NCBI GenBank assembly: GCA_963719515.1
Contig: CAVRCJ010000004.1
Span: 1-64,000 of the forward strand
Direction of reading: 5' to 3'
Source of the DNA: an uncultured cyanobacterium
GTDB lineage: Bacteria; Cyanobacteriota; Cyanobacteriia; CAKZMO01
DNA length: 64,000 bases
The position numbers and the translations under genes are program-made. Shown one piece after another: positions 30,228 to 36,056 of the stretch. The notes under the pieces are model-generated. The model was not told where the DNA came from. It ran no database searches and worked only from the letters and a program-made list of their open reading frames with translations. Position 1 is the stretch's first letter, and every line of letters starts with the position of its first letter.

Positions 30228-30520
30228 GTTGTGGTTTCGCTTGACCTCTTGAGTCTACTGCAGCAGATGACCCTTCGATAGGGCGTTCAGGGCAACTTGA
30301 GAGGTCGAGGCGATCGGATTTGGACTGGACCGCTTCACTGCCGGCCTCGCGACGAAAGGACGTGGCGATGCCATGTCCTTACCGCCTGATTTGCGACCTG
30401 CACAATGCTGTGAATTCATGCCTCAATTCATCGATGATCCCCTTCGGAGTTGATTTGATTGAGACCGACGTGAAAGGAGTTCTTGTTGGGCGGAGATCCC
30501 TCCTGACTCCCCTTATCAAA

Positions 30521-30790
30521 GATACCCCTGGCGAAATATTCCGTAATGGCGTTTGGCGTCTTGCAGGCCCCCTCCGCCCCCAATTCGTAGTCCATGCCCT
30601 TCGGACAGGCTTCGCCAGCGGCTACGCTGCGCGAGGGGGAAACCTGAGCAGTGGCCATACCATTTGCCGCTATTGACTTCAAGGAGTTATAACTTCCCTG
30701 AAGGCCTCCAGAATTGGGGGATTTGGAGACCTTCAGAGAAGTCAGGAAATAGCCGAGATGTAACAAGACATCGAATTCGCCGGCGGCGTC
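30521..30790. mobile_element. degenerate MITE, homologous to 58791-59010, with an internal insertion
   Basis: ends GATACCCCTGGCGAA / TTCGCCGGCGGCGTC; body aligns by eye to the 58.8-kb copy. Confidence 0.8.
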
Positions 30791-30867
30791 AAAAGACGCG
30801 CAAGAAATATTCTCTTTGCGTCAAACTTGAGCTACACAAGACTAGCGGACACTGCCTGCCCCCCAGG

Positions 30868-31227
30868 CTAACCCCGAGGGATATCCAGAGAGCGCCGCCG
30901 CATCAGGTAGGCCAGCACCTGCCCTTCGCGGCGGGTAATCCTGACGCCACCATCGCCAATGGCAATGGGGCCGCTCCACTGGGCATGGTCCACATAGTGA
31001 CGCGCCTGCAGCAGGTAGATGGTTTCCCGCACGCCTTCTGGGGAGCCGATGAGCAGGTGGCGGATGAATTCATCGCTGGGGCCAGGATCTGGGGAGACCA
31101 GATTTGGGGTGGCGATCGCGGTGGGGGTAATTAGGGGAGCTGCGGTGCCTGCGGGCAGCCCGTCGGGTGCGGCCAATAGGCTATGTGCGGCCTCGCTATG
31201 GGGCAGCTGAAGGTGGTGAATTGTCAT
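30868..31227 (-). CDS. small conserved cyanobacterial hypothetical protein
   Basis: IRHLLIGSPEGVRETIYLL...WS motif recalled from multicopy cyanobacterial hypothetical proteins; ATG at 31227. Confidence 0.7.
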   Translation of the reverse strand: MTIHHLQLPHSEAAHSLLAAPDGLPAGTAAPLITPTAIATPNLVSPDPGPSDEFIRHLLIGSPEGVRETIYLLQARHYVDHAQWSGPIAIGDGGVRITRREGQVLAYLMRRRSLDIPRG

Positions 31228-31329
31228 GGGTTTTCTCTTTATAGTTTGGGTAAGAAAACCCAAAGAGCCTGGCCAACCCAGGGTGTTGCGAGTCTAGGAA
31301 GGCCGGGGACATTGCCATACAATGTCCCA

Positions 31330-31450
31330 TAGCTCTAGACAGGCGGGTTCTGTCTGGGGTCAGGGCGCGGGCGTTGCGTCATCAACGTTCCGCGTCCGTT
31401 AGCGACCAAGTCTTTGGGCGAACGGTTGAGCGGTGCGAGACCGCTCTAGC
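31330..31450 (+). ncRNA. candidate structured small RNA
   Basis: TACAAT -10 element at 31318, then hairpins 31332-31360, 31363-31397 and 31428-31446; G-U pairs favour the + strand. Confidence 0.45.
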
Positions 31451-31637: not shown

Positions 31638-31886
31638 ATGACTACGGCAGAGCAGATTTATGAGCTGGTGAAGGCGATGCCGGAAGCGCAGGCCAACATG
31701 GTGCTAATGTTTGCTGAACTGGTGGGGCGGCGCGACAGCGGTGCCAGTGAAGCTGAGGCCGTGGGGAAAGATGATGAGGCATGGCGATCGCTAATACAAG
31801 AATTGTCTGGAACCTGGCCAGATTTCCCTATGGCGGAGGCGCTGAGGGCGACAGCAGGGCAGGATGTAGCGCGTGAGCCGCTTTAA
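31638..31886 (+). CDS. putative antitoxin (DUF2281-like)
   Basis: small acidic ORF with AGGA RBS, directly upstream of and overlapping a PIN gene. Confidence 0.75.
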   Translation: MTTAEQIYELVKAMPEAQANMVLMFAELVGRRDSGASEAEAVGKDDEAWRSLIQELSGTWPDFPMAEALRATAGQDVAREPL

Positions 31887-32278
31887 TCTATGTTCTAGAT
31901 ACAAATACGGTAATTTACTACTTCAAGGGCATGGGTAGGGTAGCTGAGCGTCTAGAGGCGGCGCTAGCTAGTGAAATAGCCATTCCAACAGTTGTGCTCT
32001 TTGAGCTGTATGTGGGTATCGCAAAGTCCTCTGATGCAACGAGGCGGAGTCAGCAGCTCAATACATTGCTTGATGCAGTGACAGTGCTGCCTTTCACTCA
32101 GGACATGGCAAAAGCTTCTGCCAGTATTCGCGCCACGCTTGAACGGCGAGGAAAGCCAATTGGGCCGCTTGACGGTTTGATTGCGGGAGTGGCTTTGGCG
32201 GAAAGCACAACGCTTGTAACTCATAACACACGGGAGTTTGCCAGGGTGGAAGGACTGTCTCTTACGGACTGGTTCTAG
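31886..32278 (+). CDS. vapC: VapC-family PIN toxin; natural start position reads ATC
   Basis: YVLDTN at 31889, ELYVG, PIGPLDGLIAG, LVTHNTREF. Confidence 0.88.
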   Translation: MYVLDTNTVIYYFKGMGRVAERLEAALASEIAIPTVVLFELYVGIAKSSDATRRSQQLNTLLDAVTVLPFTQDMAKASASIRATLERRGKPIGPLDGLIAGVALAESTTLVTHNTREFARVEGLSLTDWF

Positions 32279-32448: not shown

Positions 32449-35400
32449 ATGTCTGACCTTGACCTGATTGAGCAGCTAGGAGATTTCTTACGTCGCCCTC
32501 TGATAGAAGTCTCTGAGGAGCGGCTGGAGCGGCATTTTCAGACAAGGTATGAGTGGGATGGAGCGAATCGCATCAATCGAGACGCCTATTCTCTGGCGGA
32601 GAATGGCACCGTCAGCGGGCTGTTGCTGCAGCCGGTGACCAGTGAGATTTTATATGATTTTCCCTTTCAACAGCTCACAGATTTAAGGCATTTATATCTA
32701 TCGCGAGTCAATCTGTCGGATTGGTCGTTCTTGAGCCACCTAACCGGCCTCACCTCGCTTGATTTAAGTTTCCGCATCAGCGATTGGTCATTCTTGAGCC
32801 ACCTAACCGACCTCACCTCGCTTGATTTGAGTTTCACCCGCATCAGCGATGGGTCATTCTTGGGCCACCTAACCAGCCTCACAACGCTTGATTTAAGTGC
32901 CAACAGCATCAGCGATGGGTCATTCTTGAGCCACCTAACCAGTCTCACCTCGCTTGATTTAAGTCACAACAGCATCAGCGATGGGTCATTCTTGAGCCAC
33001 CTAACCGGCCTCACCTCGCTTGATTTAAGTCACAACAGCATCAGCGATGGGTCATTCTTGAGCCACCTAACCGGCCTCACCTCGCTTTGTTTAAGTGCCA
33101 ACAGCATCAGCGATGGGTCATTCTTGAGCCACTTAACCGGCCTCACCTCGCTTTGTTTAAGTGCCAACAGCATCAGCGATGGGTCATTCTTGAGCCACCT
33201 AACCGGCCTCACCTCGCTTGATTTAAGTCACAACAGCATCAGCGATGGGTCATTCTTGAGCCACCTAACCGGCCTCACCTCGCTTGATTTGAGTCGCAAC
33301 CGCATCAGCGATGGGTCATTCTTGAGCCATCTAACCGGCCTCACCTCGCTTGATTTAAGTCACAACAGCATCAGCGATGGGTCATTCTTGAGCCACCTAA
33401 CCGGCCTCACCTCGCTTGATTTAAGTTCCAACAGCATCAGCGATGGGTCATTCTTGAGCCACCTAACCGGCCTCACCTCGCTTGATTTAAGTTCCAACAG
33501 CATCAGCGATGGGTCATTCTTGAGCCACCTAACCGGCCTCACCTCGCTTGATTTAAGTTCCAACCGCATCAGCGATGGGTCATTCTTGAGCCACCTAACC
33601 GGCCTCACAGCGCTTGATTTAAGTTTCAACAGCATCAGCGATGGGTCATTCTTGAGCCACCTAACCGGCCTCACAGCGCTTGATTTAAGTTCCAACAGCA
33701 TCAGCGATGGGTCATTCTTGAGCCACCTAACCGGCCTCACAGCGCTTGATTTAAGTTTCAACAGCATCACAGAAATTCCTCGGTGGTTGGCTACAGGCCG
33801 ATTAGCAATTAAAGTTGATGAGCAATATGCTTTCACCTGCATCAACCTCTACAACAATCCCATCAAGGAGCCACCCCTAGAAATTGTCCGTCAAGGCAAC
33901 GCCGCCATTCTCAACTACTACGACCAGCTCGCTGCCCAAGGCGAAGACCACCTCTACGAGGCCAAAATGCTGATCGTCGGCGAAGGCGAAGCGGGCAAAA
34001 CTACCCTAGCCCACAAAATCCCCGACCCCAACTGTCCCCTCTCCCACGTGGACGATCGCACCCGAGGCATCAGCATTCAACCCCACAGCTTTCCCTGCCG
34101 CAGCCGTGACCAAGCCGCAGAACCCCGCGACTTCCACCTCAACATCTGGGACTTCGGCGGCCAAGAAATCTACCACTACACCCACCGCTTCTTCCTCTCC
34201 AAGCGCTCCCTCTACGTCCTCGTCGCCGACAATCGCAAAGACGACACCGACTTCAACTACTGGCTCAACATCATCCAGCGCTTCGCCGGTAACAGCCCCC
34301 TCATCATCGTCCTCAACGAAAAAGGCGACATCCAGCGCAGCCTCAACCGCGCCGACCTGCGGGGCCGCTACCCCGACAGCATCAAAGAAATCCTCTCCGT
34401 CAACTTCAAAACCCAGGAAGAGCCAGACCAAGCCAAAGCCCAGCAGCGTCTCAAAGATATTGATCAGCTCATCGGCCACATTCAGCACCAGGCCCAAAAC
34501 CTCCCCCACATCGGCGAGCCGGTACCCGCCCGCTGGGTAGACGTGCGCCAAGCCGTAGAAGAGGACGATCGCAATCATATCTACCGCGAACAGTTCGACG
34601 AACTCTGCCACACCCAAGAGATCACCAAAAGCGAAGACATCGACACCCTGCTCAGCTACTTCCACGACCTGGGCATCCTCCTCCACTTCGAGAGCAACCC
34701 CCTGCTGCGCAACCGCGTCATCCTCAAGCCCGCCTGGGCCACCAACGCCGTCTACCGCATCTTCGACGACGACAGCATCAAAGCCAAAGCCGGTCGCTTC
34801 ACTCGCCAAGACTGCGCCGCCATCTGGAGCGACCCCCAGTACCGCCGCATGCACGACGTGCTCATCGAGCTGATGAAGAACTTTCGCCTGGTGTACGAAA
34901 TCGGCACCACCGGCAACCTCGTCGCCCCCCAACTGCTGCCCCCCAACACGCCAGCTTATCCCTGGGACGAAGCCCAAAACAGCCACATGCAGCTCCGCTA
35001 CGACGCCTTTATGCCCAAGGGCATCTTCTGGCAGCTCGCCGTCACCCTCTACCGCTACATCCCTAATCACGACTGGGTGTGGCGTAGCGGCATGGTCATC
35101 CAGCGGGGCAACACCTGGGCAGAAGTCAAAGAAGACCTCAACCTCCGCCGCATTTTCCTGCGCTTCTGCGGCCCCAGCATAGCCGAGTTTCGCGCCGTCA
35201 TCGTCGATGAGCTAGACCACATCAGCGGCACCTACCATGGTCTTAACTACGACAAAATGATTCCCTGCCAGTGCAGCGAATGCCAAGTAGCCAATCCGCC
35301 CCACTTTTTTGACTACACAGTTCTCAAGCGGCGGCAGGAATCGGGCAAAAAGCCAACCATTGAGTGCCAGCGCAGCGAGGAAGATGTTTCCCTCCGCTTA

Positions 35401-36056
35401 TTGCTCGAAGGCTTCGACGTTCAAAAAATCGTCGAAAGCGTTGCCCGACAAACAAGGCGACGAGCCCGCGCCGCCTGGGGCACCCCCGGCTGTCGCCGTC
35501 CCCCTTCCCAAGGGGGACTATAAGCCGTATCCAGCAGGCGCAAACACCTATGCAATGCAAACCATCAAAATCTTTCTTGGCCTCCTCCTCAGAGCTGAAA
35601 GGCGATCGCGAGCAGTTCGAGATTTTCATCAGCCGCAAGAACAAGCAGACTGTACAAGACGGCATTTTCCTAGAGCTGGTGATTTGGGAAGACTTCCTCA
35701 GCGCCCTGTCCAAAACGCGATCGCAAGACGAATACAACCTCGCGATCGCCAACTGCGACATCTTCCTCTGCCTTGCCCACACCAAAGTCGGCCAATACAC
35801 CAACGAAGAATTTCTCGTCGCCCTAGAAACCTTCAAGGACAGCGATCGCCCCCTAATCTGGACTTACTTCAAAGACGCCGCCGTCAACATGAGCCGCATC
35901 ACGCCAGAAATCATGACCTTACTCAACTTCAAACAGCAGCTCTCTGACATGGAGCATTTCTATCAAAACTATGCCGACGGCAACGATCTCCTGCGTCAGT
36001 TTGGCGAGCAGTTGCTCAAGGTGCTGCCGCGATTAACTGGCGGCGACCCTCGTTAG
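32449..36056 (+). CDS. LRR-Roc-COR (ROCO) protein with frameshifted C-terminal TIR/DUF4062-like domain
   Basis: 22-aa LRRs, VGEGEAGKTT, RTRGI, WDFGGQE, LNEK, YFHDLG; two +1 shifts near 35436 and 35578 lead into KIFLASSSEL...EEF. Confidence 0.88.
32713..33765 (+). repeat. 16 near-identical 66-bp LRR-coding tandem repeats (first unit 63 bp)
   Basis: unit ATCAGCGATGGGTCATTCTTGAGCCACCTAACCGGCCTCACCTCGCTTGATTTAAGTNNCAACAGC. Confidence 0.97.

Follow-up and report, generated by a model that had tools for sequence, protein, structure and literature searches.

We found that a tandem array of near-identical leucine-rich repeats (LRRs) in the window, the 64,000-nucleotide stretch of DNA analysed here, is, judged by its sequence, the LRR arm of an LRR-Roc-COR gene from a cyanobacterium, encoding a bacterial LRRK2-like GTPase. 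The account that we consider fairly probable is that this one gene encodes a cytoplasmic protein of the prokaryotic Roco (AP-GTPase-COR) family that combines sensor, switch and effector, with a homogenised LRR array, a selected LRR face and a role in defence. That the repeats evolve by recombination together with selection is very likely in our judgement and, if this is granted, a defence role is likely as well.

Not mentioned in the preliminary description of this DNA was that the array opens a Roc-COR gene whose TIR-like end is broken. The parts of the locus are as follows:

32449..35523, + strand: Roco gene as assembled, with its ATG at 32449 and 1024 aa (N-cap, LRR array, Roc, COR-A, COR-B and an out-of-frame tail)
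32449..32718, + strand: N-terminal cap and first divergent LRR, charged; the N-terminus of orthologues is similar
32719..33769, + strand: LRR array of 16 near-identical 22-aa units, defined by TRF, register split and AF2 strands
33964..34320, + strand: Roc GTPase domain (Pfam)
34525..35409, + strand: COR-A and COR-B (Pfam, residues 693-830 and 844-987)
35438..35440, + strand: first extra base (+1), placed in the linker that follows COR, a gap relative to the intact orthologue L002
35555..36056, + strand: effector domain at the C-terminus, DUF4062-like (TIR-like), which this assembly puts out of frame
35572..35579, + strand: second extra base (+1), falling within strand 1 of the effector domain

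Pfam searches of the 1024-aa ORF gave LRR_4/LRR_8, Roc (1.8e-22), COR-A (2.7e-40) and COR-B (1.7e-27), the last three all above cut-off. The Roc-COR tandem carries G motifs: the P-loop at 33979, a G2-like Thr motif at 34057, DxxG at 34147 and a G4-like NEK at 34315. The best PDB match of the protein was the Chlorobium tepidum Roco structure 6hlu (E 5e-107, residues 116-940), and no hydrophobic leader was visible by eye in the N-terminal cap. An orthologue was found in one of four congeners, whose genomes are 80-93% complete, so that copies in the others may have been missed. A promoter scan of the locus found no site. Directly upstream of the Roco gene lie a small ORF and a PIN-domain gene (PIN 5.8e-18) that form a VapBC-like pair (31638..32278, + strand); no such pair was seen beside the homologues among flank ORFs of at least 120 aa. 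Further upstream, 30515-31420 has many dispersed copies in the genome at 65-85% identity, probably a small-repeat family or decayed mobile elements, and RuBisCO-activase-type genes elsewhere in the window point to a cyanobacterial host.

The near-identical LRR cassettes proved to be real, with TRF reporting for 32719-33769 a period of 66, 16.0 copies, 94% matches and 0% indels. Splitting the array in register showed that unit 1 is 63 nt long and lacks an AAC codon, units 2-15 are full length, and unit 16 extends 19 codons into the cap. The most variable codon, at 32833 + 66n, corresponds to LRR position 8, the codon after LS. Across units 2-16 it takes five alleles, TTC (3), GCC (3), CAC (4), CGC (1) and TCC (4), and is NNC in 15/15, exactly as first reported. 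Positions 3, 5 and 10 are variable too, with TCG/ACG/GCG at 11/1/3, GAT/TGT at 13/2 and AGC/CGC at 12/3, respectively. These three neighbouring codons had likewise been named correctly, but the AAC/ACC variation listed with them appears a single time, in boundary unit 2, where it alters the conserved Asn, neither an x nor a face position. In units 2-16, 15 of the 66 sites vary, 10 of them changing a residue and 5 silent; silent changes had been called few, and they make up a third of the variable sites. The mean difference between adjacent units is 3.4 bases, compared with 4.1-5.3 for units 2-12 places apart, which fits local duplication.

An AF2 model of the cap and LRRs (19 sequences; pLDDT 91.8, pTM 0.86) contained one three-residue strand per unit, spanning LRR positions 3-5, and its fold matches were the LRR of C. 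tepidum Roco (E 4e-33, TM 0.69) and internalin A. Because the strands span positions 3-5, positions 3 and 5 are predicted to lie on the sheet, and 8 and 10 in the following loop. By standard LRR geometry, residues at these positions would face the concave side and its rim. The earlier placement of the variable codons on the binding-face side thus agrees with the model, in which positions 3, 5, 8 and 10 all fall on or beside the β-strand.

Selection on these codons was assessed by counting minimal steps per codon column and comparing face, framework and silent sites. In the window array, replacements numbered 10 on 12.1 face sites versus 3 on 38.7 framework sites (p=8e-5), and the face count compared with silent changes (5/15.1) gave p=0.071. 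Evidence for selection from the window array alone was therefore weak, and a neutral history of recent expansion and gene conversion, with relaxed purifying selection, x positions that are merely unconstrained and a housekeeping or signalling role, could account for it.

The comparison was extended to 79 loci from species genomes, 1 from metagenomes and the 5 Roc-COR paralogues in this genome. These 85 parsed loci yielded 33 arrays with at least 4 in-register units, 12 of which had at least 85% unit identity; the pooled count excluded L002 and L031, which duplicate L024 and L003, any locus lacking a parsed Roc motif (3/79) and any with fewer than 4 units in register. In the 12 homogenised arrays together, the face took 101 replacements on 144.9 sites against 49 silent changes on 198.6, a ratio of 2.8 with a nominal p=5e-10, a value that overstates the case since the 12 arrays represent about 7 lineages and are not independent. 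When neutral simulations were filtered by identity in the same way, their mean ratios lay at 0.79-0.93 and their maximum at 1.5, and 0/600 reached 2.8. The ratio exceeded 1 in 11 of the 12 arrays, L048 going the opposite way (0.17), and the amino-acid change was concentrated at LRR positions 3, 5, 7, 8 and 10, above the silent rate. Local hypermutation of the face codons was considered and rejected, the silent rate being 8/35 there and 41/164 elsewhere. The same figure speaks against a neutral history, as do the pooled ratio and the effector domains described below, which are swappable and of conflict type. On its side stand, besides the single-array p value, the more diverged arrays, where the ratio exceeded 1 in only 2/21 and lay at or below about 1 in the other 19 (step counts saturate there), flanks lacking a defence context, and the scant knowledge of what bacterial Rocos do (PMC6337361). 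Taken together, we consider the neutral history unlikely. The diversifying face first suggested for this array is supported by the pooled arrays, and for the window array by itself the evidence falls short.

Concerted evolution of the units, also suggested at the outset, was indicated by nearest-neighbour comparison, in which 72/73 units from 11 arrays had their best match within the array they came from. In the window array, units were on average 0.94 identical to one another versus 0.60-0.79 to those of other arrays. Four-gamete incompatibilities were present in 8/8 arrays tested (3/14 site pairs in the window array) and suggest exchange between units, although recurrent mutation or chimeric assembly can also produce them. 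LRR number among orthologues ranged from about 1-3 (L022, L003) to at least 18 (L032), with the qualification that short-read assemblies can collapse units. Among the protein sequences of 66 representative homologues that have at least 4 units in register, 12 combined a framework identity of at least 0.85 with a face identity of 0.21-0.62, showing that a homogenised framework with a variable face is common among Roco family homologues. Since the contig begins inside the LRR array in 15/76 parsed species-genome loci, homogenised arrays are probably undercounted. Unusual conservation of silent sites between species, suggested by L003, was not borne out: four-fold identity of the units was 0.07-0.83 against 0.40-0.69 for Roc-COR in 9 orthologues, with few sites.

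The possibility that the pattern is largely an artefact of assembly or polishing draws on indels in other arrays of this genome (4/16 units at C6 and 1/7 at C13) and on the codon missing from unit 1. Set against it, a metagenome contig (X3) matched 33331-33425 with 0 differences, a match that still allows unit order to be affected, and 9 high-identity arrays from other assemblies display a matching pattern. We regard an artefact as highly improbable. The metagenome contigs came from four runs of one study, and none spans the window array; they carry the variant codons CAC at 33295 and AAC at 33361, possibly from other strains or species.

The preliminary description had also raised adenine-directed, DGR-like mutagenesis, in which units would be altered via a reverse transcriptase from an AAC-bearing template. 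The NNC codon at position 8 in all 15 units and the AAC found at that codon in relatives are what this reading would predict; NNC codons also arise where replacements alter the first two bases and homogenisation keeps the third uniform, and NNG codon sets occur in other arrays (Cyanobium). No PF00078 or TIGR04416 match was obtained in the genome (21 contigs, 100% complete by markers), 0/64 flank ORFs from 20 homologue loci encoded a reverse transcriptase, and a search of the whole genome recovered no copy of the 66-nt unit outside the array. A metagenome scan for the unit pattern likewise returned no template; its single locus was an LRR array that is coding and has a transposase behind it. 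Adenines were not preferentially altered: 10/16 consensus adenines never vary in the window units, A is absent from the first position of the position 8 codon in 15/15 units, and majority-base sites vary across the 12 arrays at A 49/214, C 42/222, G 46/183 and T 29/197, with silent third-position sites varying at 2/14 for A versus 18/88 for the others. With neither reverse transcriptase, template nor adenine bias, the DGR proposal falls away, and we judge it to have almost no chance of being correct.

Having set these alternatives aside as improbable, we return to recombination with selection as the preferred reading and to the other end of the gene. In orthologues L002 and L003 (80% and 76% DNA identity), Roc-COR continues in frame into the effector domain, to which the DUF4062 profile matched with E 1e-4 and 1e-5. 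Overall the DUF4062 E values ranged from 1e-5 to 3e-4, those of L003 and L031 being above cut-off and the others just below. A model of the intact C-terminal domain of L024 had five strands alternating with helices and weakly matched TIR and nucleoside-deoxyribosyltransferase (NDT) structures (best E 5e-5); a profile search of PDB sequences with the effector domain gave no match. E84 and E85 are invariant in 18/18 effector sequences and lie in the helix after strand C, which makes them candidates for the catalytic Glu of TIR domains; the invariant Glu falls at 35808-35810 in window coordinates. DUF4062 domains are described as TIR-like NADases with anti-phage activity that require a conserved Glu (10.64898/2026.05.01.722283, 10.64898/2026.09.04.749371), and by analogy the effector domain is probably NAD-destroying.

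Two extra bases put this domain out of frame in the assembly. The first was absent from 2 X1 metagenome contigs and the second from X1, X2 and X4 contigs; one X1 contig, differing at 1 other letter in 259, lacked both, and an X4 contig, differing at 1 other letter in 151, lacked the second. Frame changes in this assembly were found in 1/87 ordinary gene pairs and are common in its repeat arrays. We lean towards assembly error over strain-specific breakage as the source of the two bases. Between them, the linker joining COR to the effector contains a GC-rich element (35481-35522) that has a second copy in the genome and several copies in congeners. Relatives are often broken as well, with in-frame stops after or inside the LRRs (L003:1729-1731, L037:~3992), and transposases stand right behind or ahead of the array in others (L021:537-1649, L034:3041-3874), suggesting frequent loss.

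The effector is replaceable within the family. The C-termini of 69 homologues were assigned to TIR_2 (32), DUF4062 (8, of which 1 passes the Pfam cut-off), EAD9/11 (5), AAA_21 (4), PNP_UDP_1 (1), NPHP3 only (1) and no family (18). Even closely related proteins differ by such swaps, since the homologue L022, with the PNP_UDP_1 end, shares 81% identity along the cap-Roc-COR query. In the Roco proteins L059, L069, L074 and L081, an ABC-type ATPase (AAA_21/AAA_15) takes the place of TIR at the C-terminus, and another homologue (P0004, 1345 aa) has two tandem Roc-COR modules after its LRRs and then a TIR-like end, as seen by eye. PADLOC returned no match for the main ORF and matched the effector of the orthologues to its candidate PDC-S60; no defence-island context was seen, and the homologue flanks hold mostly housekeeping genes.

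Swappable effectors, as in the prokaryotic AP-GTPase-COR family, together with a Roc-COR-CHAT protein in a gasdermin operon, led us to propose a cytoplasmic invader sensor. Exchange between the 66-nt units, through unequal recombination and gene conversion, would keep the scaffold uniform and reorder the face variants, diversifying selection would retain those variants, and reverse transcriptase would play no part in repeat evolution. The LRR face would bind an invader protein and the GTP/dimer cycle of Roc-COR, a nucleotide and dimer cycle treated in PMC5714945, would shift; the DUF4062 domains would then assemble and deplete NAD+, leading to abortive infection. Diversifying selection could also act towards a ligand other than phage, such as competitor effectors, self/non-self markers of the filament or grazer and host proteins, or this copy could be a decayed or effector-less decoy. 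The sequence evidence for these options is identical to that for an invader sensor, and the two frameshifts in the window copy, compared with one frame change in 87 ordinary gene pairs, and the stops in L003 and L037 fit a decoy. The X1 contig free of both extra bases and the X4 contig free of the second count against decay, and DUF4062 activity has so far been shown in anti-phage systems, going by the preprints above as far as their available text extends. We assign a non-phage ligand or a decoy a low probability and retain the invader sensor as the preferred function.

Much of this has precedents. Kaur, Iyer, Burroughs and Aravind (2021, PMC8195603) predicted a counter-invader function for the prokaryotic AP-GTPase-COR family. 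According to the text available to us, its members resemble the present gene in having fast-evolving N-terminal LRRs and an AP-GTPase with COR, and in occurring as several paralogues per genome, to which the 5 further Roc-COR loci here correspond; their C-terminal effectors, of 24 or more kinds (TIR, DRHyd and EADs among them), vary as those of the homologues here do. The Roc-COR section of that paper contains neither nucleotide-level homogenisation of units nor a codon-level selection test, and its main text does not name DUF4062. C. tepidum Roco (PDB 6hlu, 5il7, 8r4b) shares the LRR-Roc-COR architecture and differs in serving as a structural model for LRRK2, a use general to bacterial Rocos, whose physiological role is little known (PMC6337361). 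The Runella gasdermin-associated protease likewise joins a bacterial Roc-COR to an effector, in a cell-death operon; it has a CHAT protease and a gasdermin partner, whereas the present gene stands singly with an NADase-like domain (10.1101/2021.06.07.447441, in its accessible portion). Swarozyc, Avs2-DUF4062, Vulcan and Vesta, as presented in the available parts of 10.64898/2026.05.01.722283 and 10.64898/2026.09.04.749371, combine a TIR-like domain, a conserved Glu and a sensor fusion, a layout that the intact orthologues here probably share. In the main text of the DUF4062 preprints, including 10.64898/2026.06.25.731849, 'LRR' and 'Roc' occur 0 times; their supplements may list a fusion of DUF4062 to LRR-Roc-COR.

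The mode of repeat evolution has counterparts outside this family. LRR-ROCO genes of Ectocarpus (PMC3341825, as far as its text was available) have Roc-COR, positively selected residues on the LRR concave face and variable LRR number; each LRR there is an exon shuffled with intronic reservoirs, and the window array is intron-free with no reservoir copy. Fungal and bacterial NLRs carry WD40/TPR repeats with units 80-90% or more identical, and positive selection with unit reshuffling is described for the fungal repeats and proposed for bacteria (10.1101/2020.01.06.895854, accessible text). NLRs use a NACHT/NB-ARC switch and the prokaryotic ones there are without LRRs, unlike the Roc GTPase and LRRs found here. 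Two features of het-e type repeats recur here: the units of the window array are more than 80-90% identical and evolve in concert, and selection on the face appears when arrays are pooled. Our literature search, which left subscription journals mostly outside, found no codon-level selection test on bacterial Roco LRRs. The family, its predicted role and the general idea of repeat diversification are already in print, making this gene a good test case and not a new system.

The genome holds four more Roco paralogues with homogenised 69-nt LRR arrays and the same face-focused variation, and further homogenised arrays with few hypervariable residues per unit, which by eye are WD40-like, TPR-like and, in one case, a helical repeat. 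Their positions are:

C6:33642-34731, C8:100257-101161, C13:103984-104493 and C3:89907-90138: 69-nt LRR arrays of Roco paralogues
C1:266092-267808, C10:17554-19143, C11:113576-115556, C5:57946-59136, C5:168626-170360, C1:342688-343855 and C17:115643-116391: further arrays

The off-length units at C6 and C13 have their indels at or beside variable codons, and the paralogues at C6 and C13 have a similar N-terminal segment (C6 ~34730-35200 and C13 ~104500-104750; minus strand), helix-turn-helix-like by eye, before the LRRs. This genome holds a repertoire of homogenised-repeat genes. A bolder extension, which we put forward tentatively and think rather doubtful, is that the Roco is a recombinationally programmable pattern-recognition receptor, whose VLR-like library of LRR cassettes would be reshuffled within a population or filament with an NADase read-out, the other LRR, WD40 and TPR arrays forming with it one RT-independent repertoire. 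If true, this would give bacterial LRRK2-like GTPases their first physiological function and natural ligands. The codon-level evidence extends to bacterial LRRs a mode of repeat diversification known from fungal NLRs and ROCO proteins of brown algae, and a Roco that joins a selected LRR face to a DUF4062 end would provide a direct read-out, in NAD+ loss, phage protection and a Glu mutant, for what activates the Roc-COR switch.
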